From NCBI GenBank assembly GCA_964439145.1, contig CAYTNL010000017.1, positions 13,102 through 77,101 of the forward strand: 64,000 bases of DNA, read 5' to 3'. Within the stretch, counting starts at the first letter, position 1. Every line of letters begins with the position of its first letter. The notes beneath the pieces were generated by a model. The model was not told where the DNA came from, did no database searches, and saw nothing but the letters and a program-made list of their open reading frames with translations. The translations under genes were made by a program, and so were the position numbers. Positions 8,887 through 38,965 of the stretch are shown piece by piece. Source of the DNA: an uncultured Verrucomicrobiales bacterium. GTDB lineage: Bacteria; Verrucomicrobiota; Verrucomicrobiia; Verrucomicrobiales; DEV007.

Positions 8887-10188
8887 ATGAAACCGCGCCC
8901 CTATTCCCCATTCCCGTGTTCCCTGGTATCCGCGGTCCTCCTCATCCTCGCCGTTTGTCCCGGATTCGCCTCTGATTGGCCCGGCTTTCGCGGCCCCACG
9001 GGTGATGGAGTCGTCCCGGCAAGTGAGACACCGCCTCCGCTCACGTGGAGCGAGTCCGAGAATATCGTCTGGCGAACCGAACTCCCCGGCCCGGGCTCTT
9101 CCAGTCCCATTGTGGTGGGTGACCGCGTATACCTGAGTTGCTACAGCGGCTACGGCCTCGACAAGACCGATCCCGGCGATATCCGCCAGTTGCGCCGACA
9201 TGCCCTATGTCTCGACCGGGCCAGTGGGGAGATATTGTGGGATCACGTTATCGATTCGGGAGACGGTGAGAAGCCCTATCAAGGTGAGTACATCACCACT
9301 CACGGATACGCCTCCGGGACACCCGTTTCAGATGGGGCGGGCGTGTTCTTCTTCTTCGCTCACGCCGGGGTGCACGCTTTCAGTCTCGATGGACGAAAAG
9401 TCTGGGAGACCAGTGTCGGATCCAACGCCCACGCCTGGGGTTCGGGGTCGTCACCGGTACTCCATGGGAATCTCCTGATCGTGAACGCGGCCCTGGAGAG
9501 CGACACTCTCCTGGCGCTTGATCGACGCACGGGTGAGGTGGTGTGGCGGGTGGAGGGCTTTCCCAACTCTTGGAACACGCCAACGATTGCCACCGTGAAC
9601 GGCAGGCCTGAGTTGATCGTGAACGCCAGCGGCAAAGTGCGCGCCTTCGATCCCGAGACCGGACAGGAGCTGTGGTTTTGCTCTGGCATTCGTGCCGCGG
9701 AATTGTGTCCGAGCGTTCTCGCGCACGATGGCGTCGCCTACGTCATCGGGCATCCCGGCGGGGAGGCCATGGCAGTCCGCATGGGCGGTGATGGAGATGT
9801 CACCGGCACCCACATACTGTGGCGGATCAAAAAAGGGTCGAACGTGGGCTCTCCGGTCTGGCACGACGGCCATTTATACTTCGCCAACGATTCCCGCGGC
9901 ATCGCCTACTGTCTCAAGGCCGAGACCGGAGAGGTGGAATATGAAGAGAAACTGCTACCCGCGCGCGTCCGGGACCGTTTCTACGCCTCGCCCATCCTGA
10001 GTGAGGGACGCCTTTACTACGTGGCCCGGACCACCGGAACCATGGTGCTGGCTGCCAGTCCCAATTATGAAGTGTTGGCCACCAATGTGATCGGCGATGA
10101 TCAGAGTGTCGCCAATGCCAGCCCGGCGGTGTCGGATGGGCGGATTTACCTGCGGTCAGACCGATTTGTCTACTGTTTCGGGAAATGA
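8887..10188 (+). CDS. PQQ-like beta-propeller repeat protein (BamB-like fold), secreted
   Basis: ORF 8833..10188. ATG at 8887 precedes a signal peptide. DWPGFRGPTGDG plus repeated W-containing blades (ILWDHV, KVWETS, VVWRVE, ELWF, ILWRI) are typical of outer-membrane PQQ-like propellers. Confidence 0.75.
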   Translation: MKPRPYSPFPCSLVSAVLLILAVCPGFASDWPGFRGPTGDGVVPASETPPPLTWSESENIVWRTELPGPGSSSPIVVGDRVYLSCYSGYGLDKTDPGDIRQLRRHALCLDRASGEILWDHVIDSGDGEKPYQGEYITTHGYASGTPVSDGAGVFFFFAHAGVHAFSLDGRKVWETSVGSNAHAWGSGSSPVLHGNLLIVNAALESDTLLALDRRTGEVVWRVEGFPNSWNTPTIATVNGRPELIVNASGKVRAFDPETGQELWFCSGIRAAELCPSVLAHDGVAYVIGHPGGEAMAVRMGGDGDVTGTHILWRIKKGSNVGSPVWHDGHLYFANDSRGIAYCLKAETGEVEYEEKLLPARVRDRFYASPILSEGRLYYVARTTGTMVLAASPNYEVLATNVIGDDQSVANASPAVSDGRIYLRSDRFVYCFGK

Positions 10189-28353: not shown

Positions 28354-29481
28354 CTAATGAAGTTTGATCGAATTGGGCGGAGGCGGAGATCCGGCTTTCA
28401 GGAGCCAATCATACACCGCCGAGAAGCGAGCCGCGATGGCGGGCCAGCGGTAGTCGCGATCTACGATGGAACGTCCGCGAGCCCCCATGGCGGCGCGTTC
28501 GGCATCGGAGAGCGCGATGGCTTCGGAGAGCGCGGCGGCGATATCGGAAGGCGACGGTGCCACACGCCAGCCGCAGTGTTCGCGCGTGAGGACATCCCAC
28601 GGGGTGCCGGTGGTGGTGATGACCGGGAGGCCGTATTGCATGGCCTCCGGGACGACGAAGCCGAAATTTTCCGAATGTGACGGGAGGACGAACAAGTCGG
28701 CGCGGCGAAAGGCGGTGTCTTTTCGATCCCCGAAGAGGGGACCGGAAAAGCGGAGGCGATCCGAATCGAGTCCGAGTTTGCCGGCCAGAGTTTCCAGGGC
28801 GGATCGATGTCCGCCGTCGTCGGGGCCGGCGATGATCAGTTTCCAATCCGGCGCGTCGAGATTGGCCCATGCTTCCAGCAGCAGGTCGACGCCTTTCTTC
28901 GGGTGAACGCGCGAGAGGAAAAGCACTTCGCGATTCGATTTCGGCGCGGCGACGGCTTCGGGATCGAGCGGCTCTGGTGGAACGGGATCGATCCCGAGTG
29001 GTATCTCGGCGATTGGCTGGCGGAGGCCGAATTCGCGAAGCCGCGCGGTTTCCGCCGGTGAAGTGGCGTGCAACACGTCGGCGGATTCCAGGTTGCGTCT
29101 CTGGTAGAGCCCCAGGGCGAGCCGTTTTCGCCAGGCGTGATGCCCGAGCGCCCAAGACTCGAGCATGCCGTGAGTGGACAGGACGAGAGGTAGTCCGGAG
29201 CGCGTGGCGAGCCACCCCGCGGCGACGGGTAGCCTGGCCCAGATACCATGCTGGTGAACGAGATCGAAGGCGTCTGTCGCATGAAAACCCCGGACGATTG
29301 TCGTGCGGTGGATCGGAATCGCATCGTCGACCGTGACGGGATTCGCGGTTTTCGGTGAGACCAATTCGTATTGGAATTCGCTTCGGTCCGAATGCGCCAA
29401 CGCGTTCACCAGTCCGGCCACCGCCACCGGCAAACCGCCGGCGTTGTGATCGAGCGTTTCGACGGCGTGGAGGATGCGCAT
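28354..29481 (-). CDS. GT-B fold glycosyltransferase (family 4-like)
   Basis: MRILHAVETLDHNAGGLPVAV...; C-terminal E-x7-E-like SHSENFGFVVPEAMQYGLPVITT. Abuts the acetyltransferase gene with no gap. Its ATG overlaps the recG stop (TGATG). Confidence 0.8.
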   Translation of the reverse strand: MRILHAVETLDHNAGGLPVAVAGLVNALAHSDRSEFQYELVSPKTANPVTVDDAIPIHRTTIVRGFHATDAFDLVHQHGIWARLPVAAGWLATRSGLPLVLSTHGMLESWALGHHAWRKRLALGLYQRRNLESADVLHATSPAETARLREFGLRQPIAEIPLGIDPVPPEPLDPEAVAAPKSNREVLFLSRVHPKKGVDLLLEAWANLDAPDWKLIIAGPDDGGHRSALETLAGKLGLDSDRLRFSGPLFGDRKDTAFRRADLFVLPSHSENFGFVVPEAMQYGLPVITTTGTPWDVLTREHCGWRVAPSPSDIAAALSEAIALSDAERAAMGARGRSIVDRDYRWPAIAARFSAVYDWLLKAGSPPPPNSIKLH

Positions 29482-31544
29482 CAGGCGTCGGTCTGGTTTT
29501 CCAACATCCCTCTCGCAATCTCCCGGGCCCGCTGAACGAGCGCGGTGTCAGTGAGAAACTCTGCGAATGCCAGGTCCGGCAGTCCGCTCTGGGCGGTGCC
29601 GAGCACTTCGCCGGGACCGCGGATTTTCAGATCGGCCTCGGCGATGCGGAAGCCGTCGCGGGTTTCCTCCAGCACGGACAGCCGTTGGCGGGCTTCGATG
29701 TTTTCGGGTTCGATCATGAGCACGCAGTAACTCTTATGCTCGCCGCGTCCGATGCGGCCGCGCAACTGGTGGAGTTGGGCGAGTCCGAATCTCTCCGCGT
29801 TGAAGATCAGCATGAGGTTGGCGTTGGGCACGTCAACGCCCACTTCGATGACTGTGGTGGAGACCAGCACCCGGATTTCCCCGGCGCGAAAGGCGGTCAT
29901 GACCGAGTCCTTTTCCTCCGGCGTCAGGCGTCCGTGGAGCAGGCCGCAGCGCCAGCCCTGGAAGCGTTTTTCCCAGGCCTCGAACTCCGCGGTGGCGGCG
30001 GCGGACTTGATCTTCTCCGATTCCTCGATCAGTGGGTAGACCAGATAGGCTTGTCGCCCCTCGCCCAGCTGGTCGCGGACGAAATCCGCCGCCGCCTCCA
30101 GCTTGGAGGTGTCGCGGATACCGGTGATGATCCGGCCGCGTCCCCGGGGGAGTTCGTCGATGATGGACACGTCGAGATCGCCGTAGATCGACAGCGTCAG
30201 GGTGCGCGGGATGGGCGTGGCCGTCATGATGAGCACATCCGGGCGCGAACCCCGGGCGGCGAGGGCTTCGCGCTGGGCGACGCCGAATTTGTGCTGCTCG
30301 TCGATGACCACCACGCCGAGAGGTCGGTCGAAGTCGTCGCCATCGCCATGGATGAGCGCGTGGGTGCCCACCACGATGGAGCCGTGGTGGGAAAAAAGCG
30401 GCAAGGCCCCGCCGTCTTCCTTTCGGGAGCCGGTCTTCAATTTCACCGTCACGCCCAGCGGCGCCAGCGAGGCGCTGAGATGGCGAAAGTGCTGCTCGGC
30501 GAGGATCTGGGTCGGCGCCATGAGAGCGGCGTCGAATCCCGCCTCCACCCCGAGCAGCATGGTGGCGGTGGCGACGAGCGTTTTTCCCGAGCCGACATCG
30601 CCCTGCAGCAGGCGGTGCATGGGACGCGGCGCGGCCAGGTCGGCGCGGATCTCGGCGATGGCCCGGGTCTGGGCGCCGGTGGGGGAAAAGGGGAGGGCAG
30701 CGATCCAGCGATCCAGCAGCGCGCCATCGCCCGCGTGGGGGCTGCCGCCGCCCGATTCCCAGGCCTCGCGCCGACGCAGCAGGGCGAGCTGGAGCAGGGA
30801 AAACTCCTCCAGGGCCAGGTAGCGCCGGGCGACCGCGAGGGTGTCGAAGCTCTTGGGAAAATGCAGCTCGCGGATGGCGCGGGCGCGGAACCAGCCCGCG
30901 TCGTCAAAGGCCCCGTCCGGCAGCAGATCGGGGAGATCGTCATCGGTGATGGCCTCGAGCGTCCGATGGATGAGAGTCCGCAGCGCTTTCTGCTGAAGTC
31001 CGGCGGTGAGCGCGTAGACCGGGGTGATGCGGCCCATGTGGATCTCCGCCGCCTCGGTGTCGCCCTCTTCGTCGATGATTTCAAAGTCCGGGTGATCCAT
31101 CACCAGGCGTCGTCCCTTTTCCTTGGGTAGGCCGTAGAGGATGAGGGTCTGTCCGGTGGCGATGAGCTTGCCGATGTGCGGCATGTTGAACCAGCGCAGA
31201 GCGAGCCGCCCGCTCATCACATCGCCGCCCGGATCCTCGACCGTGGCCTCGAAGTAGCGCCGTTTGTGGCCGGGCACGAACTTGGACTGGGTGTCAGTGA
31301 CCTCGCCGCGAAGGCAGAGAGGCTGGTCGGTCCCGTGATGGGGGAAGCGGTCGAAGCGGGTCCTGTCCTCGTAGCGGCGCGGGTGGTGGCGCAGCAGGTC
31401 GCCCACCGTCCGCAGCCCGAGCGCGTCGAGGCCGTCGCGCAGTTTCCGGTCGGCCGCCTTCGTCCCGCCGCCGAAGAATGGCAGCGCCTCGACCGGGGTG
31501 TCGGTCGAGATCACGGAGGGTCGGTCGGTGGCGGAGGACGTCAC
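29481..31544 (-). CDS. recG: ATP-dependent DNA helicase RecG
   Basis: Walker A GDVGSGKT, DEQHKFGV, MTATPIPRTL, LHGRL, QLHQLRGRIGRG. The start is uncertain: GTG 31544 is chosen because longer versions of ORF 29481..31922 would overlap the divergent DoxX gene and are Arg/Ser-rich. Confidence 0.85.
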   Translation of the reverse strand: MTSSATDRPSVISTDTPVEALPFFGGGTKAADRKLRDGLDALGLRTVGDLLRHHPRRYEDRTRFDRFPHHGTDQPLCLRGEVTDTQSKFVPGHKRRYFEATVEDPGGDVMSGRLALRWFNMPHIGKLIATGQTLILYGLPKEKGRRLVMDHPDFEIIDEEGDTEAAEIHMGRITPVYALTAGLQQKALRTLIHRTLEAITDDDLPDLLPDGAFDDAGWFRARAIRELHFPKSFDTLAVARRYLALEEFSLLQLALLRRREAWESGGGSPHAGDGALLDRWIAALPFSPTGAQTRAIAEIRADLAAPRPMHRLLQGDVGSGKTLVATATMLLGVEAGFDAALMAPTQILAEQHFRHLSASLAPLGVTVKLKTGSRKEDGGALPLFSHHGSIVVGTHALIHGDGDDFDRPLGVVVIDEQHKFGVAQREALAARGSRPDVLIMTATPIPRTLTLSIYGDLDVSIIDELPRGRGRIITGIRDTSKLEAAADFVRDQLGEGRQAYLVYPLIEESEKIKSAAATAEFEAWEKRFQGWRCGLLHGRLTPEEKDSVMTAFRAGEIRVLVSTTVIEVGVDVPNANLMLIFNAERFGLAQLHQLRGRIGRGEHKSYCVLMIEPENIEARQRLSVLEETRDGFRIAEADLKIRGPGEVLGTAQSGLPDLAFAEFLTDTALVQRAREIARGMLENQTDA

Positions 31545-31603
31545 GGGCGAAACCTGACACCGGGGATCAGACGGATGCCAATGAAATCCTGTCCCCGCCC
31601 TCC

Positions 31604-31643
31604 GAGCAGAGAGGGTTGGGTCTCCGGGTCTACCCTCTCGGGT
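31604..31643. repeat. Recurrent ACCCTsT-hexamer motif, divergent pair between recG and the DoxX gene
   Basis: gAGCAGAgagggttgggtctccgggtctaccctcTCGGGT. The left unit reads on minus (ggagacccaaccctcTCTGCT), the right unit on plus. Confidence 0.55.
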
Positions 31644-31695
31644 GGACGACGAATTTCTGTAAAGCCGGCGGCGGCTTCGGCGACCAATCCGGACG

Positions 31696-32115
31696 ATGAA
31701 AGATGCCACGGTCCTCTCCCGCCCGCTCACCCGTCTCAGTTGGTCGCTCCGCGTCGTGGTCGCGGTGATTCTGCTCCAGACACTGTTCTTCAAGTTCACC
31801 GGCGCCCCGGAATCGGTCCACATTTTCGAGACCCTGGGCCAGGAACCGGTCGGGCGCATCGGGTCGGGCGTGGTGGAGCTGGTGGCGGCGATCCTGCTGT
31901 TCGTGCCCGGTCTCACCGCCATTGGCGCGGCCTTGTCGCTGGGGGTGATCTCGGGTGCGATATTCTTTCACCTCACCAAGCTGGGCATCGGAGTGCGGGG
32001 TGACGGTGGTCTGCTCTTCGCCCTGGCGGTGGTGGTGTGGATCGGGAGCGCCCTGCTGCTGTGGCTGCACCGGGCGGGATTGCCGGTGGTGGGGAGGTTA
32101 TTTGGGAGAGCGTGA
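31696..32115 (+). CDS. DoxX-family membrane protein
   Basis: 139 aa with four hydrophobic segments. FFKFTGAPESVHIFETLG and GVVELVAAILLFVP are typical of DoxX-like proteins. Confidence 0.65.
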   Translation: MKDATVLSRPLTRLSWSLRVVVAVILLQTLFFKFTGAPESVHIFETLGQEPVGRIGSGVVELVAAILLFVPGLTAIGAALSLGVISGAIFFHLTKLGIGVRGDGGLLFALAVVVWIGSALLLWLHRAGLPVVGRLFGRA

Positions 32116-32128
32116 ACGCATGAAGGAA

Positions 32129-32413
32129 TCAATTCCCGGCGGATGCTGTTGATTCAAACTCTCCCAGCGCGCGGTAGAAATCTTCGGAATCGGGTTGAGT
32201 CAACTCCATAGCGAGGTTCGCAACCGCTCGAAGCGACTCTGAGCATTCCGGTCCGGAATCTTCAGCCATGTCATGGAGCGCAACGGAGAGATAACGAACC
32301 CTGCTATGGATGTTGGAGGTGGCCATCGACTCTCCGAAATGGAATCCAGCGTAGGTCCCGAAAAAACCTAGCGTCAGACTAAATCCCACCCAAAACGCTC
32401 GTTCCAATTTCAT
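32129..32413 (-). CDS. Small hypothetical membrane-anchored protein (94 aa) in a low-GC patch
   Basis: N-terminal TM (FWVGFSLTLGFFGTYAGF), acidic helical C-terminus. Local GC is clearly below the window average. Confidence 0.4.
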   Translation of the reverse strand: MKLERAFWVGFSLTLGFFGTYAGFHFGESMATSNIHSRVRYLSVALHDMAEDSGPECSESLRAVANLAMELTQPDSEDFYRALGEFESTASAGN

Positions 32414-32600: not shown

Positions 32601-34412
32601 TCAGAGTTTCGAGTCGTCGGGCGGCGCGGCTTCGTCGTCGTCGTCCTCCGGCTGGTCGATGGAGAGGCGATCAATCATGGCGTAGAGTTTCGAATCGCCG
32701 ATGCCGGGTACGTTCGACACATCGTCGAAAGTGGCATAGGGACGGCTTTCGATGAGGCGCTTGGCCAGCGCGGGTCCGATGCCGGGGAGGGTGAGCAATT
32801 CCTCCTCGGTGGCGGAGTTGAGGTTTACCACGGGGCCGTCGGGTTCGCAGACCTCATGATCGTGGGCGAAATCGGCGCCGGAATCGTCGGCGGGTGTCTC
32901 GGTGTCTTTGCCGGCGACGTGATCGCTTTCGGCGATGCCGTCGATCTCCTCGTGGTCGGGCCAATCCTGGACGGGTTCGTGGCCAGTCTCGTCTGCGTGG
33001 TAGTCGTGGTGGAAAGGGTCGTGGCCGGGATCGTACTCATCGTGCCAACTCTCGTCGTGATCCGGATCGTAGGGGTGGCCCCACTGGTCGTGGTGCTCGT
33101 CCCGGGGCGCGTGGGGATCGTGGGGAATGTGACCGGATTCCTCCTCGTAGAGGTGGGCGTGTTCCTTCTCGTATTGTTCGATCTCGTGGCGATGGAGTTC
33201 TTGTTTCTCCTCCTCGGAGAGGTCGTCGTGGGATTTCGAGTAGAGGGAGGCGAGCCGCTGCTGGCGCTCCTGTTCCTCGGCCTGCCGGTCTTTCTCCCGT
33301 CGTTGCTCCATGAAGTAGGCGATCCAGATGCAGATCTCGTAGAGCAGGATGAGCGGTCCGCCGAGCAGACCGAGGGTGAAGACATCCGGCGGGGTGAAGA
33401 TGGCGGCGGCGATGAGGATGACGACCCAGGCGTAGGAGCGGGTGTTCCGCATCACGCGCGCGGTGAGGAGCTCCAGCTTCACGAGGATGACGACGACGAC
33501 GGGGAGCTGGAAGCTGATGCCGAAGACGAGGGTGAGCCGGGTGATGAAGTTGATGTATTCGCCGATCTGATAGCTGACGGTCTGGGTGGGTCGGCTGGAG
33601 ATGACGAGTTTTTCGTTGTCGGGATCGAAAAACAGGGACACTTCCGAGCCTTTTTCGACCACTAGCAGATCCCGGAGATAGTCGCGGACAGCCGCGCGAG
33701 TGTCGGGATCGAGAGCCGACCCGGTCTCGGCGGCGGGGGTGTCGGGCAAGTCGTCGGTTTCGGGGCTCGGGCCGACCTCGGGGGCGGGGAGTTCGGCGGG
33801 CGCTCCCAGCACTTGGACGGGAAGATACTCTTTCAGCACCTGCTCGCTGGCGGGCGGGGTCATGAGGCCGAAGCGCTCCAGGGAGAAGGTGTAGAAGAAT
33901 TTCAGGGCGATGGGCGAGGCCAGGAAGAAGGCGAAGCAGGCGCCGATGAGAAAGAGGATGAACCCGATGCCGACGCCGGGGACGACATAGCGTTTCTCGT
34001 TCTGTTTGAGTCCCGGCATGATGAACTCGCCCGCGAACCAGACGAGGAACGGGAAGGAGACGATGAGGGCCGCGAAGAAGGAGGTCTTGATCGAGAGCAT
34101 CAGGATCTCCTGAGGCTTCAGGGTGAAGAGGCTGATCTTGTCGAAGAGTGTGGTGCCATCCTCGAAGACCGCGAGTTTGGCGGGCACCTGGATGAATTCG
34201 AAGATCTGAAGGTTGAAGATGAAGGCCAGCATCGTGGTGACGATGATGAGCACGAGCATCTTGCCGAGGGTCTTGCGGAGATCCTCGAGGTGATCGAGAA
34301 AGGGTTTCTCGTAGGGATCGAAGCCCTCGTCGGCGCCGGGCCGGGATCGCCGCGCGCGGTTGGCGGCCTCGCGAGCTTTGAAGAGCTTCTCAAAGGCGAA
34401 TCGGAGAATCAT
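32601..34412 (-). CDS. tatC: TatC-family translocase subunit with a loop insertion and a C-terminal His/Asp-rich + ComEA-like HhH extension
   Basis: TatC core: PFLDHLEDLRKTL, six hydrophobic helices, FGISFQLPVVVVILV, IFTPPDVFT. About 105 extra residues lie between helices 3 and 4. The tail (residues ~369-603) contains NLNSATEEELLTLPGIGPALAKRLIESRPYATFDDVSNVPGIGDSKL, a ComEA-type (HhH)2 signature. Confidence 0.75.
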   Translation of the reverse strand: MILRFAFEKLFKAREAANRARRSRPGADEGFDPYEKPFLDHLEDLRKTLGKMLVLIIVTTMLAFIFNLQIFEFIQVPAKLAVFEDGTTLFDKISLFTLKPQEILMLSIKTSFFAALIVSFPFLVWFAGEFIMPGLKQNEKRYVVPGVGIGFILFLIGACFAFFLASPIALKFFYTFSLERFGLMTPPASEQVLKEYLPVQVLGAPAELPAPEVGPSPETDDLPDTPAAETGSALDPDTRAAVRDYLRDLLVVEKGSEVSLFFDPDNEKLVISSRPTQTVSYQIGEYINFITRLTLVFGISFQLPVVVVILVKLELLTARVMRNTRSYAWVVILIAAAIFTPPDVFTLGLLGGPLILLYEICIWIAYFMEQRREKDRQAEEQERQQRLASLYSKSHDDLSEEEKQELHRHEIEQYEKEHAHLYEEESGHIPHDPHAPRDEHHDQWGHPYDPDHDESWHDEYDPGHDPFHHDYHADETGHEPVQDWPDHEEIDGIAESDHVAGKDTETPADDSGADFAHDHEVCEPDGPVVNLNSATEEELLTLPGIGPALAKRLIESRPYATFDDVSNVPGIGDSKLYAMIDRLSIDQPEDDDDEAAPPDDSKL

Positions 34413-34551: not shown

Positions 34552-35931
34552 TCACCATTCCGGCGCGGATTTCAGGCGGCGCTCCCAGCGGGCCAGCTGG
34601 CGCCCGACATTGGCCGGCGACGGCGCCCCGATGCCTCCGCGCGCTTTGAGAGCGGTCTCCACATCGAGCACCCGGTGGACATCGGGGCCGAAGGCGTCGG
34701 AAAAGCGGCGATAGTCCTCCAGGGTCATCTCCGGAAAAGGGGTGCCGGTTTCCAGGGAATGGGCGGTGAGCTTGCCGATGACCTCGTGGGCCTGGCGGAA
34801 GGGGACGCCTTTTAGGACCAGATAGTCGGCCAGATCGGTGGCGAGGAGGAAAGGGTCGCTGGCGGCGGCCCGGGTGCGATCGGTCCGCACCCTGGCGGCG
34901 GCCATCATCTCGGCGAATACGTCGAGCGCCAGGGTCACGGTGTCGATGGAGTCGAAGAGCGGCTCCTTGTCCTCCTGCAGGTCGCGGTTGTAGGTCATGG
35001 GCAGACCCTTGAGCGTGGTCAACAGGGAGACGAGATTTCCGGTGAGGCGTCCGGTTTTTCCCCGGGTGAGTTCGGCGACATCGGGATTCTTTTTCTGGGG
35101 CATCAGGCTGGAGCCGGTGGTGTGGGCGTCGCTCAGCTCGATGAAGCCGAACTCCGCGGTGGCCCAGAGGATGACGTCCTCGCTCAGCCGCGAGAGGTGG
35201 GTGCCGACGAGGGCGAGCACAAAGAGTAGCTCGGCGATGAAATCCCGGTCGCTGACCGCGTCCATGCTGTTCCGCGTCACGTCGGGAAATCCCAGGATCT
35301 CCGCGACCAGTTTCCGATCCAGCACGATGGTGGATCCGGCCAGAGCGCCGGAGCCCAGCGGCATCACATTGACCCGTTTGTGGCAATCCCGGAGGCGGTC
35401 CAGGTCGCGGTCCAGCATCTCCAGGTAGGCGCAGAGGTGGTGGGCGAAGAGGACGGGCTGCCCGCGTTGCAGGTGCGTGTAGCCGGGGATGACGGCGCCG
35501 GGATGGGCCTTGGCGCAGGTGAGCAGGGCGGACTGGAGCCGATGTACGCCCCCGGCGATGCGACGGATCTCGGCGCGGCAGTAGAGGCGCACATCGAGCG
35601 CCACCTGATCGTTCCGGCTGCGGGCGGTGTGCAGTTTCGCGCCGGGGGCGCCGATTTTGGCGGTCAGAGCCGCCTCGATGTTCATGTGGATGTCCTCAAG
35701 GCTGGTCCGGAACTGGAACTGTCCCGACTCGATCTCGGCCCGGATTTCGCGGAGGCCCCGATTGATGGCGCGTTGCTCGGCCTTGGTCAGGATGCCGGCG
35801 GCCTGGAGGGCGGCGGCGTGCGCCAGGGAGCCCTCGATGTCGTGGGGATAGAGTCGCCAATCGTAGGAGATCGACTCCCCGTAGCGCTGGACGAGATTGG
35901 AGGTTTCGGTCTGGAAGCGGCCTTTCCACAT
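34552..35931 (-). CDS. argH: Argininosuccinate lyase
   Basis: ORF 34552..35970, ATG at 35931 (MWKGRF). Fumarate-lyase signature GSSLMPQKKNPD and TSLEDIHMNIE. Confidence 0.9.
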   Translation of the reverse strand: MWKGRFQTETSNLVQRYGESISYDWRLYPHDIEGSLAHAAALQAAGILTKAEQRAINRGLREIRAEIESGQFQFRTSLEDIHMNIEAALTAKIGAPGAKLHTARSRNDQVALDVRLYCRAEIRRIAGGVHRLQSALLTCAKAHPGAVIPGYTHLQRGQPVLFAHHLCAYLEMLDRDLDRLRDCHKRVNVMPLGSGALAGSTIVLDRKLVAEILGFPDVTRNSMDAVSDRDFIAELLFVLALVGTHLSRLSEDVILWATAEFGFIELSDAHTTGSSLMPQKKNPDVAELTRGKTGRLTGNLVSLLTTLKGLPMTYNRDLQEDKEPLFDSIDTVTLALDVFAEMMAAARVRTDRTRAAASDPFLLATDLADYLVLKGVPFRQAHEVIGKLTAHSLETGTPFPEMTLEDYRRFSDAFGPDVHRVLDVETALKARGGIGAPSPANVGRQLARWERRLKSAPEW

Positions 35932-36000
35932 GGTGGCGGCAAAGAGACAGGGATTTCCCGCGTTTGACAAGCGGGAGGTGTGGCGGCGGGCGCGACCGCC

Positions 36001-36531
36001 TCAGGCGGGCAGTTTTCTGGCCGGGCCTTTGCCGCGCTTGCCCAGGCGCATCTCGAGGAGATTCTCGCAAATGCCATCCTTGCGCAGTTGGTCGCAGCAG
36101 GCCTCGATGCGCATGGATTTCTTCGTCGGACGAAAGCCCAGCCGCCGGGTGATGCAGTCGAAGAGGGTCTCGATGTGCTCATCCTCGAACTCGATCACCT
36201 TTCCACAGTCCACGCAGATGAGGTGGTTGTGGTGGGGATGGTCGAGGAAATTCGGATCGTAATATTTCTGGTCACGCCCGAGATCGATCTCCCGGAGCAG
36301 GCCGCTCTCCACCAGCAGCGAGAGAGTGCGATAGAGCGTGGCGCGCGAGGTGGCTGGGTCGAGGCGCCGCGCCATGTCCCAGAGCTGCTCCGCGGTGAAG
36401 TGCTCCTCGGTGCCGAACGCCGCCTCGACGATCACATCCCGTTGACTGGTGCGCCGCAGGCCCTTGTCGCGGATGTAGTTGTCGAAGCGTTTTTTGATCT
36501 CCGGATCGATCATGATCCGCCCAGTCTCCAC
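36001..36531 (-). CDS. Fur-family transcriptional regulator with a Cys-rich/basic C-terminal extension
   Basis: RRTSQRDVIVEA...RATLYRTLSLLVESGLL (wHTH) and HHNHLICVDCGKVIEF (metal site). About 40 extra C-terminal residues contain CC...C and KRGKGPARK. Confidence 0.75.
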   Translation of the reverse strand: METGRIMIDPEIKKRFDNYIRDKGLRRTSQRDVIVEAAFGTEEHFTAEQLWDMARRLDPATSRATLYRTLSLLVESGLLREIDLGRDQKYYDPNFLDHPHHNHLICVDCGKVIEFEDEHIETLFDCITRRLGFRPTKKSMRIEACCDQLRKDGICENLLEMRLGKRGKGPARKLPA

Positions 36532-37511: not shown

Positions 37512-37618
37512 TGGGGGGGACCAGAGAACTGCGGCAATCCCGGACAGGCTACCGTTGCTGCCTTCCGGCCCTGGCGGGGTTCGCAAGCCGGTATTCCGCA
37601 GCCTCTGGAAGGGCGAAT
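37512..37618 (-). ncRNA. ffs: Signal recognition particle RNA (small 4.5S type)
   Basis: The minus strand reads ...CCAGAGGCUGCGGAAUACCGG...CCGCCAGGGCC-GGAA-GGCAGCAACGG...CCGGGAUUGCCGCAGUUCUCUGG. The apical CAGGGCCGGAAGGCAGCA closely matches the conserved domain IV of E. coli 4.5S RNA (CAGGUCCGGAAGGAAGCAGC), with a GGAA tetraloop and an AGCA loop. Flanking arms pair (CCAGAG/CUCUGG, CUGCGG/CCGCAG, CCGG/CCGG). The ends are approximate. Confidence 0.75.
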
Positions 37619-37819: not shown

Positions 37820-38965
37820 ATGTGGAAAGTGTTGCTAGTCATTTCGGCCATGGTACTGGCCGGTTCGGGGGTGATCAGCTGGAACAACCAGCAGAAACTC
37901 GACGACCTGCGGACCGAGCGGAAAAACAACGAGGCGCAGGCGGAGCAGCTTGCCAAGCAGTTGGCCGACACCAAGGAGGAGCTGGGGACGACGGTGACCG
38001 AGGTCGCCGCGCTCAAGGATGAGGCCCAGAAGCTCCAGGTCGAGGTGGATACCGCCAAGGCGAAGGTTTCCGAGAACGATCTTCAGGTGAACAACCTCGG
38101 CACCCAGCTCGAGGCCAAGCGCGCCGAGTTGACCGAGGCCAAGAAATTCCTCGCCGAAATGGGAGACGCCAAGCGGGTTCAGGAAGAGATGGCCATGGTG
38201 CGCTCGCAGGTCGAAAAAGCCCAGATCGAAGTCGCCGCCGTCGAGCAGAGCATCCAGGCCGCCAATGCCCAGAAAGAACAACTCACCCGCATCGCCGCTG
38301 AACTGGCCGCCTTGAAAAAGGATCAGGAAGAAGGCCGGATCCGGCCCGAATTCAACAGCTCCATCAAGCGCGCCTACAACCAGTGGGGCTTCGTGGTGGT
38401 GGAGGGTGGCAACGATCAGGGCGTGGTGAAGCGTGCCCAGCTCGATGTCTCCCGTCGCGGCCAACCCATCTGCAAACTCATCGTCACCTCCGTCGAGCCC
38501 CAGGAGTCCATCGCGGAAGTCATACCCGGTTCACTCGTGCCGGGCCAGACCATACAGGAGGGTGACACCGTGGTGAAAAGCTCGGCCCCCATGCCCATCC
38601 CCGGTAGCACCACGCCTCCCGCCCCGCCCACCTCGGCCCCGCCGGCTGGCGACGCGGAAGCGCCCGCTCCCGCGATGCCCGAGTCGTCTCCCGCCCCCGC
38701 GACGGACGATCCCTTTGGTGGCGGAGGCATGAACGGTGGTGCCCCGGCCGCGCCTCCGGCGGATGATCCCTTCGGGGGTGGTGGCATGAGCGGTGGCGCC
38801 CCGGCTGCGCCCGCCGCGCCGCCTGCCGACGATCCCTTTGGCGCCGCGCCTGCGGCCCCCGCCGCCCCGGCTGAAGGCGGCGCGATGGAGAACGACCCCT
38901 TCGGTGGAGGCGCCCCCGCTGGCGGGACCACCCCTCCCAAGCCGGAGAACGACCCTTTTCAGTGA
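37820..38965 (+). CDS. TM-anchored coiled-coil protein with small beta-barrel-like domain and a DPF-repeat tail (paralog 1)
   Basis: N-terminal TM (VLLVISAMVLAGSGVI), ~170 aa of heptad-like Q/E/K/A/L-rich sequence, the domain NQWGFVVVEGGNDQGV...IQEGDTVV, then a Pro/Ala-rich tail with five DPF motifs. Confidence 0.7.
   Translation: MWKVLLVISAMVLAGSGVISWNNQQKLDDLRTERKNNEAQAEQLAKQLADTKEELGTTVTEVAALKDEAQKLQVEVDTAKAKVSENDLQVNNLGTQLEAKRAELTEAKKFLAEMGDAKRVQEEMAMVRSQVEKAQIEVAAVEQSIQAANAQKEQLTRIAAELAALKKDQEEGRIRPEFNSSIKRAYNQWGFVVVEGGNDQGVVKRAQLDVSRRGQPICKLIVTSVEPQESIAEVIPGSLVPGQTIQEGDTVVKSSAPMPIPGSTTPPAPPTSAPPAGDAEAPAPAMPESSPAPATDDPFGGGGMNGGAPAAPPADDPFGGGGMSGGAPAAPAAPPADDPFGAAPAAPAAPAEGGAMENDPFGGGAPAGGTTPPKPENDPFQ

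Follow-up and report, generated by a model that had tools for sequence, protein, structure and literature searches.

The gene at 32601..34412 on the minus strand of the window, i.e., the whole 64,000-nucleotide (64-kb) stretch of DNA analysed here, codes for a lineage-specific long form of TatC, the membrane receptor for signal peptides in the twin-arginine translocase (Tat); the host is an uncultured Verrucomicrobiales bacterium. The open reading frame (ORF) has 603 codons, with an ATG start and the stop codon at 32601-32603, compared with about 230-260 residues in canonical TatC proteins; relative to E. coli TatC, it adds an N-terminal amphipathic helix, ~96 residues in periplasmic loop P2, and ~218 residues past the C-terminus. 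We propose, with moderate confidence, that the protein functions as TatC normally does, that its tail serves as an accessory arm with a metal-binding linker and an HhH docking tip, and that the P2 insert is a decoration of the periplasmic cap. The features of the gene are as follows, with the basis of each assignment in brackets.

32601..34412, minus strand: complete tatC, "long-form" TatC (ORF list, Pfam, TIGR00945)
34308..34412, minus strand: N-terminal extension, putatively cytoplasmic, residues 1-35 (conserved columns, AF2)
33882..34307, minus strand: TatC core part 1, residues 36-177, with TM1, P1 cap, TM2, cytoplasmic loop 1, and TM3 (Pfam, BLASTP, invariant columns, AF2)
33708..33881, minus strand: P2 insert, variable part, residues 178-235 (composition, lengths, AF2, dN/dS)
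33567..33707, minus strand: P2 insert, conserved part, residues 236-282 (AF2, conserved columns)
33309..33566, minus strand: TatC core part 2, residues 283-368, with TM4, TM5, and TM6 (Pfam/NCBIfam, hydrophobic segments, BLASTP)
33135..33308, minus strand: predicted cytoplasmic helical stalk, residues 369-426 (AF2, near-invariant residues, dN/dS)
32850..33134, minus strand: polyanionic His/Asp-rich linker, residues 427-521 (composition, conserved motifs, AF2, dN/dS)
32658..32849, minus strand: HhH domain of the HHH_3 (ComEA/PsbU) class, residues 522-585 (Pfam, PDB match, AF2, Foldseek, dN/dS)
32604..32657, minus strand: acidic C-terminal end, residues 586-603 (...PPDDSKL; composition, alignment)

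The Pfam family PF00902 matches the protein with 186.7 bits (E 6e-55; cut-off 25.1) in two stretches, residues 40-177 and about 278-368, and the score for TIGR00945, the tatC equivalog of NCBIfam, is 156.7 bits, above the cut-off of 132.7. A hydrophobicity scan gives six hydrophobic segments, core part 2 aligns with residues 147-258 of E. coli TatC in BLASTP, and the core of the AF2 model (pLDDT >90) superimposes in Foldseek on the TatC structures 9e01, 9e02, 4b4a, and 4hts with target-normalised TM-scores of 0.73-0.87. D44, L135, and E139 align in BLASTP with E15, L99, and E103, the signal-peptide-binding positions of E. coli TatC; all three are invariant across 118 relatives, D44 being a conservative E to D replacement. 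By curated cut-offs, six-TM glove fold, and signal-peptide-binding residues, the protein is a member of the TatC family, alongside the canonical proteins of E. coli and Aquifex aeolicus (PDB codes 4B4A and 4HTS) and those in the TatBC cryo-EM structures (9DZZ and 9E01), and the six-helix core that had been predicted from the DNA alone is upheld. From the solved TatC structures we infer an N-in/C-in orientation. The start codon is supported because the N-terminus (MILRFAFEKLFK...) aligns with homologues from residue 1 onward. The extension formed by residues 1-35 consists of an amphipathic helix (EKLFK.RE) and a GAD.G.D loop with conserved columns K9, L10, F11, R14, E15, G26, A27, D28, and G30, and AF2 predicts the helix at residues 2-22 (pLDDT about 75).

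TatC and HHH_3 occur together in one ORF in >120 protein clusters, 809 further matches, and 276 species genomes; all of these genomes belong to Verrucomicrobiota, and they include one complete 5.26-Mb chromosome and one isolate. Both domain assignments of the original prediction were upheld by the profile searches, and its sub-coordinates all convert correctly to residue ranges. In three pairwise comparisons, dN/dS is 0.02-0.07 for the HhH domain, the lowest in the whole protein, 0.07-0.10 for the stalk, 0.08-0.18 for the linker, and 0.04-0.14 for the core; purifying selection is as strong on stalk, linker, and HhH domain as on the TatC core. The concern that a frameshift or misassembly had fused tatC to a separate comEA-like gene is refuted by the recurrence of the uninterrupted ORF in independent assemblies from many studies, and by an identical protein on an independent Logan contig. 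Purifying selection also spans the junctions, and the probability of an artefact is negligible. When a representative library was searched with the tail, the whole tail was present, among the matches listed, only in TatC-length proteins and one fragment. The top matches of that search were dominated by multi-HhH repeat proteins.

In the BLASTP alignment, residues 172-279 stand opposite residues 136-147 of E. coli TatC, and the P2 loop comprises about 106 residues here against about 10 in E. coli. Alignment and hydrophobic segments agree in placing the insert, predicted at ~105 residues, between hydrophobic segments 3 and 4. It is conserved across the long-form family, and a Pfam search of it gave no credible match. 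The variable part is acidic and Pro-rich (net charge -9, 10 Pro), ranges from 48 to 155 residues among relatives, and has a dN/dS of 0.20-0.24 in the pairwise comparisons; residues 188-231 are predicted by AF2 to be disordered (pLDDT <50). The conserved part is fixed at 48-53 residues across relatives, with conserved R243, D263, K268, and Y281, and is modelled as a helix (236-249) and a three-stranded sheet (259-263, 268-272, and 279-282) with pLDDT 73-85. Because predicted disorder is followed by one helix and three strands, the earlier description of the insert as acidic and Pro-rich and then beta-rich stands.

Myxococcus xanthus TatC (PDB code 9E03) and Nitratifractor salsuginis TatC (9E02) likewise carry a large periplasmic-loop insert in an otherwise normal TatC; in M. 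xanthus this insert folds and forms a trimer on top of (TatBC)3 (PMC13323110). With these published precedents, a large periplasmic-loop insert is less unusual than originally described. The original view that the architecture of the tail had not been described stands: our literature searches returned no published description, databases label the long-form proteins plainly as "TatC", and the tail architecture appears to be undescribed so far. In N. salsuginis the insert sits in P1 rather than P2. Sequence similarity between the inserts is not detectable, since phmmer aligns only the core with 9e03 and 9e02, and set against the two precedents the long-form insert is mostly disordered, with a roughly 47-residue alpha/beta module; the Foldseek TM-score of our model against 9e03 is 0.51. 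The M. xanthus insert is ordered and trimeric, and by analogy the P2 insert may likewise be a decoration of the periplasmic cap. The alignments with 9e03 and 9e02 end by about query residue 386, with no comparable cytoplasmic tail evident in either protein.

The tail (residues 369-603, ~235 residues) contains 68 D+E, 18 K+R, 22 His, 3 Trp, and 1 Cys, and has a net charge of -50. No hydrophobic segment was found after residue 370, where the best 19-residue Kyte-Doolittle mean is 0.56, and besides the folded HhH domain the AF2 model shows nothing but soluble helices and disordered stretches there, with no extra TM helix. An Arg/Lys cluster lies immediately past TM6, and the C-terminus is cytoplasmic in every solved TatC structure matched in Foldseek. 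Since a seventh hydrophobic segment is absent, the tail is predicted by TatC topology to be cytoplasmic, in agreement with what had been proposed for the extension after helix 6. An extra TM helix that would place it outside is ruled out by the hydrophobicity scan and the AF2 model. ComEA and PsbU are both extracytoplasmic, and among the 141 closest relatives of the HhH unit, 127 have an N-terminal hydrophobic segment and appear to be exported, which would fit a periplasmic tail whose HhH domain receives DNA outside the cytoplasm in the usual ComEA manner. Set against the topological features above and the missing ComEA lysines (see below), such an arrangement is highly improbable.

In the AF2 model the TM6 helix runs on into the stalk to about residue 392, followed by helices 400-417 and 419-426 (pLDDT about 95). 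The stalk carries the motif LSEEEK.ELHR.EIEQYEKEHAHLY, in which L398, E400, E402, K403, E405, H407, E410, Q413, Y414, E415, E417, and H418 are near-invariant. The linker that follows is as His/Asp-rich as had been claimed, with 17 His, 30 D+E, and a net charge of -28, and is predicted to be disordered (pLDDT <50). Across the family it measures 60-146 residues with a median of 15 His and a net charge of -33, and the tails of 118 relatives contain 10-29 His each, with net charges of -26 to -78 (median -45). The short motifs HDESWH, DWPD, and ESDH are conserved within the linker, where H428, D432, H452, D453, W456, H464, D470, S496, D497, and H498 are near-invariant, and a DP[HY]HDWH-like motif returns in distant subfamilies. 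A search of the PDB sequences with stalk and linker found no match, even at E=10, and a Pfam search of the linker gave nothing credible. The C-terminal end is acidic, as noted originally, with D+E at 9 of 18 positions in residues 586-603; it occurs only in the closest relatives (P0004, P0006, L084, L002, and L003) and is missing from most of the family.

Amid this length-variable sequence, H428, H452, H464, H498, C522, D432, D453, D470, and D497 are near-invariant, and among the functions originally proposed for the tail (nucleoid tether, metal sensing, or a platform for cofactor loading), metal binding appears best compatible with these conserved His, Asp, and Cys positions. Composition and conserved ligand-type residues are the entire basis for this proposal. 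His-rich metal-binding tails or loops occur in SlyD and HypB (tails), ZnuA (loop), and the CDF and ZIP transporters (cytoplasmic loops). These stretches are likewise disordered and rich in His, Asp, and Glu, but the PDB search gave no sequence homology to them, and unlike them, the linker has fixed Trp-containing motifs and sits on a protein translocase. Most likely, it would bind a divalent metal through the conserved positions and also provide a flexible tether. The negative charge of the tail, extreme and conserved among relatives, the predicted disorder, and the variable linker length would also suit a tail without any partner, i.e., an "entropic bristle" or electrostatic antenna of polyanionic character that fends off ribosomes and nucleic acids from the receptor or raises the local concentration of the basic n-regions of twin-arginine signal peptides, with the HhH domain as a mere folded cap. 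This is consistent with two relatives (L079 and L081) that have charged ELKADLK repeats instead of the HhH domain. Such a role would not explain why dN/dS reaches its minimum in the HhH domain, and the conservation of the point motifs HDESWH and ESDH and of C522 argues for specific contacts beyond bulk charge; we judge a partnerless tail quite improbable.

The tip of the tail matches HHH_3 (PF12836) at residues 528-581 with 42.5 bits (E 7e-11; cut-off 27), is directly preceded by the near-invariant C522 (CEP.GP), and is modelled with pLDDT 96. Its closest solved relative is 2DUY, a T. thermophilus protein related to ComEA (phmmer against the PDB, E 1.4e-11), with 28 of 50 residues identical in phmmer and 49% identity over 57 columns in Foldseek (rmsd 0.9 Å); the rmsd to Geobacillus ComEA (PDB code 8dss) is 1.7 Å. 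The domain has two HhH motifs in a compact ComEA-type fold, and shares with ComEA, 2DUY, and 8DSS the same HhH fold without connector helix; across 50-57 residues, it is about 50% identical to 2DUY. The earlier designation as a canonical ComEA-type (HhH)2 module is therefore borne out for the fold by HHH_3 and 2DUY, but ComEA identity is contradicted by family cut-offs, lysine pair, and charge. The comEA model TIGR01259 gives 36.6 bits against a cut-off of 152.35, and TIGR00426 gives 25.7 against 53.1. Unlike ComEA, the domain is predicted to be cytoplasmic, following TM6 of a polytopic membrane protein without a further hydrophobic segment. PsbU, the extrinsic 12-kDa subunit of photosystem II, has the same HhH fold class, but is lumenal instead of cytoplasmic, and provides a precedent for HhH domains in protein-protein contacts, not DNA binding. 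PsbU membership was considered and rejected: PF06514 passes its cut-off (28.9 against 24.5), yet overlaps the stronger HHH_3 match, the NCBIfam model NF002708 fails (25.1 against 85), and the host lineage is non-photosynthetic.

In V. cholerae ComEA, K62 and K63 (corresponding to Geobacillus K166) are essential for DNA binding, as shown by EMSA, and K164 is the counterpart DNA-contact lysine in B. subtilis ComEA (PMC3879209, PMC9747964). The equivalent residues here are A548-L549. Among 118 relatives, the position of K63 is hydrophobic in every case (L 77, M 37, I 3, V 1), and that of K62 is Lys in only 59. Since the key residue of 2DUY is Leu as well, the missing lysine does not prove that DNA binding is lost. 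The invariant R557 corresponds to the structural Arg R71 of V. cholerae ComEA (PMC3879209). Net charge of the HhH domain ranges from 0 to -14 in the family (median -5, never positive), and the closest HhH units outside TatC have a median of -1, a comparison that is only suggestive as a test of DNA binding, given that solved ComEA-type fragments are mildly acidic too and the distributions overlap. Some family members have degenerate hairpins, and in 23 of the 118 relatives Asp replaces the hairpin Gly that corresponds to V. cholerae G60. In V. cholerae ComEA, an analogous substitution, G60E, abolishes function.

These features bear on the nucleoid tether suggested originally, in which the HhH domain would bind non-specifically to chromosomal dsDNA from the cytoplasmic side and anchor or position Tat translocases relative to the nucleoid, with avidity from three tails per trimer. 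Apart from the HHH_3 match and the ComEA-type DNA binders as nearest solved relatives, a tether would be consistent with the window protein itself, in which the first hairpin (LPGIGP) is intact and K551, R552, and K575 near the hairpins are kept, as in its closest relatives, and with a distant subfamily (L073-L075) that has a basic helix (RARKARELA) just ahead of the HhH domain. In the family as a whole, however, K551 and R552 are not conserved, and a domain that lacks the lysine pair and is never net positive, with substituted hairpin glycines in some members, on a tail whose charge should repel DNA, makes a poor candidate, and we regard a nucleoid tether as unlikely. ComEA-style DNA capture is probably not the job of this domain.

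In the reading that we prefer, long-form TatC would carry out the usual TatC function, and the tail would form an accessory arm below the trimeric Tat core complex. The HhH tip would most likely dock on a cytoplasmic partner, either a protein or, weakly, nucleic acid, rather than act as a ComEA-like high-affinity dsDNA receptor. A more elaborate version, which we consider doubtful, makes the tail a regulatory or targeting arm, a kind of feature that no Tat system is known to have: divalent metal bound by the linker would alter the reach or compaction of the tether, and the HhH domain would engage a specific cytoplasmic partner, coupling export of folded (metallo)proteins to metal status or cellular location. 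Candidate partners would then include nucleic acid, the amphipathic helices of TatA/TatB, and a chaperone or a factor for cofactor insertion.

Regarding the genomic context, neither tatA nor tatB was found in the 64-kb window or, at 82 related loci, within 6-10 kb. The methods were a regex, phmmer searches of every ORF in the window and at 81 loci that used TatA, TatB, and TatE of E. coli and TatAd of B. subtilis as queries, and Pfam-annotated gene lists. The original remark that neither gene is adjacent is true but ordinary for the phylum: Verrucomicrobia have tatC and tatA at separate loci (PMC3827258), and the absence of tatA and tatB nearby is therefore uninformative. Verrucomicrobia also generally have one tatC (PMC3827258), which would favour a housekeeping role for the long form, and neither a second tatC nor another HhH gene is present in the window. 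The neighbourhoods of tatC fall into two unrelated housekeeping contexts, yicC-gmk-coaBC (46 loci) and fur-argH (19 loci), with varying downstream genes, and no linked partner gene that could serve as a functional clue was found in the neighbourhoods of related loci. A simple pattern detected no twin-arginine signal peptides in the window, a result that is uninformative.

To our knowledge, TatC is usually a minimal membrane receptor with almost nothing beyond the bilayer, and we know of no regulatory domain in it. Here, an order-level lineage of abundant environmental bacteria retains a ~235-residue cytoplasmic appendage under core-strength selection, and the tip of this appendage belongs to a domain class that is normally extracellular. 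Should the tail be dispensable, it would merely be a lineage-specific decoration. The large soluble modules could in any case aid structural work on Tat complexes, as the inserts of M. xanthus and N. salsuginis did. A tail that binds metal or a partner would make this the first Tat translocase with a control or docking element built into it, and would exemplify the re-use of an extracytoplasmic DNA-receptor fold for another purpose in the cytoplasm.

The tatC gene of the window is, as originally predicted, an intact ORF (32601..34412, minus strand, ATG start) encoding 603 residues, and the nucleotide sub-ranges proposed within it all convert to the correct residue ranges. Pfam matches the protein to TatC (PF00902, E 6e-55) in two stretches ~100 residues apart, and to the ComEA/PsbU-class helix-hairpin-helix (HhH) family HHH_3 (PF12836, E 7e-11) at residues 528–581, where weaker HhH-class matches including PsbU overlap; both predicted domains are thereby recovered. 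The core is that of a functional-looking TatC, scoring above the cut-off of the NCBIfam tatC equivalog TIGR00945 (156.7 vs 132.7 bits) and with solved TatC structures as top Foldseek matches (TM-scores 0.73–0.87, normalised to target). D44, L135, and E139, invariant in the alignment of 118 relatives, correspond to E. coli E15, L99, and E103, which hold the twin-arginine signal peptide. In BLASTP, E. coli TatC residues 7–136 correspond to residues 36–172 and residues 147–258 to 279–385, and therefore the second periplasmic loop (P2, between TM3 and TM4) comprises ~106 residues compared with ~10 in E. coli, in agreement with the large insertion that had been proposed. A further ~218 residues extend past the end of E. 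coli TatC. A Kyte–Doolittle scan of the window protein gave six hydrophobic segments (residues 47–76, 102–135, 141–178, 289–322, 326–351, and 343–368) and no seventh past residue 370, where the highest 19-residue mean is 0.56. This places the tail following TM6 on the cytoplasmic side, as predicted, and with nothing hydrophobic after residue 370 we assign very little probability to a periplasmic tail.

Full-length relatives (47–92% identity) occur in more than 120 protein clusters in the protein database, originating from MAGs of Verrucomicrobiales, Akkermansiaceae or Verrucomicrobiota and from a single isolate, BCK34, and named, where a name is given, only "twin-arginine translocase subunit TatC". 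The precomputed Pfam list includes both TatC and HHH_3 for 118 of the 120 listed clusters, and TatC only for the remaining two (P0060 and P0088). Scanning a single genome for each species gave 276 stretches with relatives; the top 80 of these are nearly all titled Verrucomicrobiota, two being titled only "uncultured bacterium", and include a complete 5.26-Mb chromosome. An independent short-read assembly encodes an identical protein, and a 90%-identical relative sits in the same fur-argH-tatC context. Because relatives recur across clusters, species genomes and an independent assembly, a frameshift or misassembly joining tatC to a comEA-like gene is excluded, leaving very little room for an assembly artefact and establishing a single genuine ORF.

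The anatomy of the protein was derived from alignments of 25 and 118 relatives, together with an AlphaFold2 model for which the larger alignment served as input (mean pLDDT 76.7).

Modules of the long-form TatC, with dN/dS (Nei–Gojobori) for the window gene against three relatives
N-terminal extension: ~35 residues; amphipathic helix EKLFK.RE (helix 2–22) and conserved GAD.G.D loop
TatC core: pLDDT >90; dN/dS 0.04–0.14
P2 insert: dN/dS 0.18–0.24; first part acidic, Pro-rich, predicted disordered, 48–155 aa among relatives; second part of fixed length, one helix and three strands, pLDDT 73–85
Stalk: TM6 helix prolonged to ~392 and two further helices to 426; pLDDT ~95; dN/dS 0.07–0.10
His/Asp linker: 60–146 residues in the family, predicted disordered, net charge -18 to -55, 4–23 His; dN/dS 0.08–0.18
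HhH domain: follows near-invariant C522 (CEP.GP); pLDDT 96; dN/dS 0.02–0.07

Each added module is under purifying selection, which is strongest on the HhH domain. The usual TatC start, PFLDHLEDLR, comes after the GAD.G.D loop, and the stalk carries a strongly conserved motif, LSEEEK.ELHR.EIEQYEKEHAHLY. Residues 368–603 contain 68 Asp+Glu, 18 Lys+Arg, 22 His, 3 Trp, and 1 Cys (net charge -50), and the description of the tail as His/Asp-rich is thus accurate. We regard it as unlikely that the tail is a non-specific polyanionic bristle or antenna. Near-invariant linker positions are H428, D432, H452, D453, W456, H464, D470, S496, D497, and H498, with the motifs HDESWH, DWPD, and ESDH.

The HhH domain had been described as a canonical ComEA-type module, and its fold class is borne out by superposition on the Thermus thermophilus ComEA-related protein 2DUY (0.9 Å, 49% identity) and on Geobacillus ComEA (8DSS, 1.7 Å). 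The domain falls far short, however, of the NCBIfam ComEA models (TIGR01259, 36.6 vs 152.35; TIGR00426, 25.7 vs 53.1). In Vibrio cholerae ComEA, transformation and the binding of DNA in EMSA both depend on K62 and the dominant K63, located after the first GIG hairpin, function is lost in the hairpin mutants G60E or G60V, and R71 is structural (PMC3879209). The lysine at Geobacillus K166 and B. subtilis K164 is conserved at least as well as the HhH signature residues, and DNA binding is abolished in Geobacillus K166A (PMC9747964). Both V. cholerae lysines are missing in the window TatC because the corresponding residues are G546-P547-A548-L549-A550. Among the 118 relatives, the K63-equivalent is Leu in 77, Met in 37, Ile in 3, and Val in 1, the K62-equivalent is Lys in 59, the G60-equivalent is Asp in 23, and 8 lack the Pro-Gly of the second hairpin; all retain the structural Arg, R557. 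The net charge of the HhH domain in the TatC family ranges from 0 to -14 (median -5), and the median is -1 over 475 HhH units from the non-TatC proteins nearest in sequence to the unit. These proteins carry 3–16 HhH units in tandem (P0121–P0266, e.g., P0125 of 2806 aa), and most of them, 127 of 141, have a hydrophobic segment at the N-terminus, which makes export probable.

True nucleoid tethering through the HhH domain appears unlikely, since although the window domain keeps K551, R552, and K575, basic residues that the family as a whole does not conserve, both DNA-contact lysines are absent and the K63-equivalent is basic in none of the 118 relatives. Weak or metal-assisted nucleic-acid binding is conceivable, because 2DUY also has Leu at the key K63 position and these three basic residues are present. 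Judged from sequence, the TatC HhH belongs to the ComEA fold class with the ComEA DNA-binding determinants absent, and our own reading is that selection keeps its fold and a surface for another, putative ligand. PsbU is a precedent for the HhH fold serving another ligand.

When 1.8 billion representative proteins were searched with the tail, the stalk–linker–HhH combination was found only in TatC-length proteins and one fragment, the remaining matches covering the HhH unit alone. Verrucomicrobial TatCs outside the immediate family form a modular series.

Variant TatCs at related loci
L073 5989–7398, L074 2758–4197, L075 405–1871: 469–488 aa, without P2 insert; acidic His-rich tail, basic helix, HhH
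L076 5678–7204, L077 5908–7485, L078 6001–7962, L080 2802–4448: large insert in the first periplasmic loop (P1), not P2
L079 5962–7479, L081 599–1936: acidic His-containing tail without HhH, ending in charged ELKADLK-type (ELKADLKEDLK) helical repeats

In the L073–L075 proteins the HhH is immediately preceded by a Cys and then a strongly basic helix (CPEDR..RARKARELA), at a place where the window protein is acidic. The P1 insert of the second group is YajC-like (GDWVVTRGGFVGRV...), with two copies in L078, which scores just below the Pfam YajC cut-off (25.4 vs 28.2 bits), and YajC is among the precomputed Pfam families of the proteins P0310 and P0315, which belong to this group too; a DPHHDWH-type His motif, the His-rich tail and the HhH are kept. 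It is curious to find a Sec-accessory-like domain facing the periplasm on a Tat receptor. The L079 sequence includes a run of N. It follows from this modular series that the acidic His-rich tail with its HhH tip is older and more widely distributed than the P2 insert, and that the inserts in the periplasmic loops are independent acquisitions.

Large inserts in TatC periplasmic loops were exploited in a 2026 cryo-EM study of Tat core complexes, where that of Myxococcus xanthus is folded and homotrimeric atop (TatBC)3, and that of N. salsuginis is unrelated and in a different loop (PMC13323110), P1 by our alignment. The P2 insert described here is a further example of such inserts, but unlike them in sequence, with no homology to either detectable by alignment. 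We found no mention in the literature of a His-rich tail or an HhH domain on TatC; a large TatC diversity survey (PMC3827258) is without the words "fusion", "extension", and "C-terminal", and its lone "insertion" refers to insertion sequences.

Genes flanking tatC in the window
36001–36531, minus strand: fur, upstream
34552–35970, minus strand: argH, upstream
32129–32413, minus strand: 94-aa ORF with N-terminal hydrophobic segment, directly downstream

The 94-aa ORF, for which neither a match in Pfam nor a relative at 80 related loci was found, is followed by a DoxX-like gene and recG. Across the 80 loci, tatC is found in two unrelated arrangements (divergent yicC-gmk-coaBC in 46, fur-argH in 19) with variable 3' genes, thioredoxin and mutS among them, and therefore synteny offers no functional partner. 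The absence of an adjacent tatA or tatB was correctly noted, as none occurs within 6–10 kb at any related locus or in the whole 64-kb window, but this is ordinary for Verrucomicrobia, since tatC and two tatA lie at separate loci in the published survey, without tatB and with one tatC per genome (PMC3827258).

Other features were noted in the window and at the related loci. At ~18 of the 80 loci, in yicC-type context, tatC has a divergent 80-aa gene ~100–200 bp upstream that matches Pfam PurA (PF04845; e.g., 9548–9790, minus strand, in both L082 and L083); the 64-kb window contains no copy. A small bacterial SRP RNA (37516–37610, minus strand; RF00169, 62.6 bits vs gathering score 40, Rfam) is found ~3 kb upstream of tatC, in the gap separating an M23-peptidase-like ORF from the gene next to it; the whole 64-kb window is devoid of tRNA genes. 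A 381-aa ORF (37820–38965, plus strand), with relatives at 11 of the 80 loci, has a hydrophobic segment at its N-terminus, contains a long stretch rich in Glu/Lys/Gln that resembles a coiled coil, and ends in a Pro/Ala-rich part in which DDPFGGGGM.GGAPAAP units recur. The longest recG ORF (29481–31922, minus strand) encodes 813 aa, compared with 687 aa called on the identical public contig (L001 3435–5498), and its first ~126 codons, rich in Arg/Ser/Thr, are probably not translated.

Overall, the predicted architecture and cytoplasmic placement stand, but the label of canonical ComEA DNA binder is not borne out. The long-form TatC would be the Tat receptor of this lineage. TatA and TatB bind near TM5/TM6 of TatC in the Tat core complex, and three tails would be located under the trimeric core complex, near these helices. 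The linker may behave as a flexible polyanion in which the conserved His, Asp, and Cys positions bind a divalent metal, and the HhH tip may dock onto a putative cytoplasmic partner. We give this general picture of a Tat receptor with three hanging tails, a metal-binding linker and a docking HhH an even chance of being correct. The finding would gain weight should the tail serve Tat export as a regulatory or targeting element.
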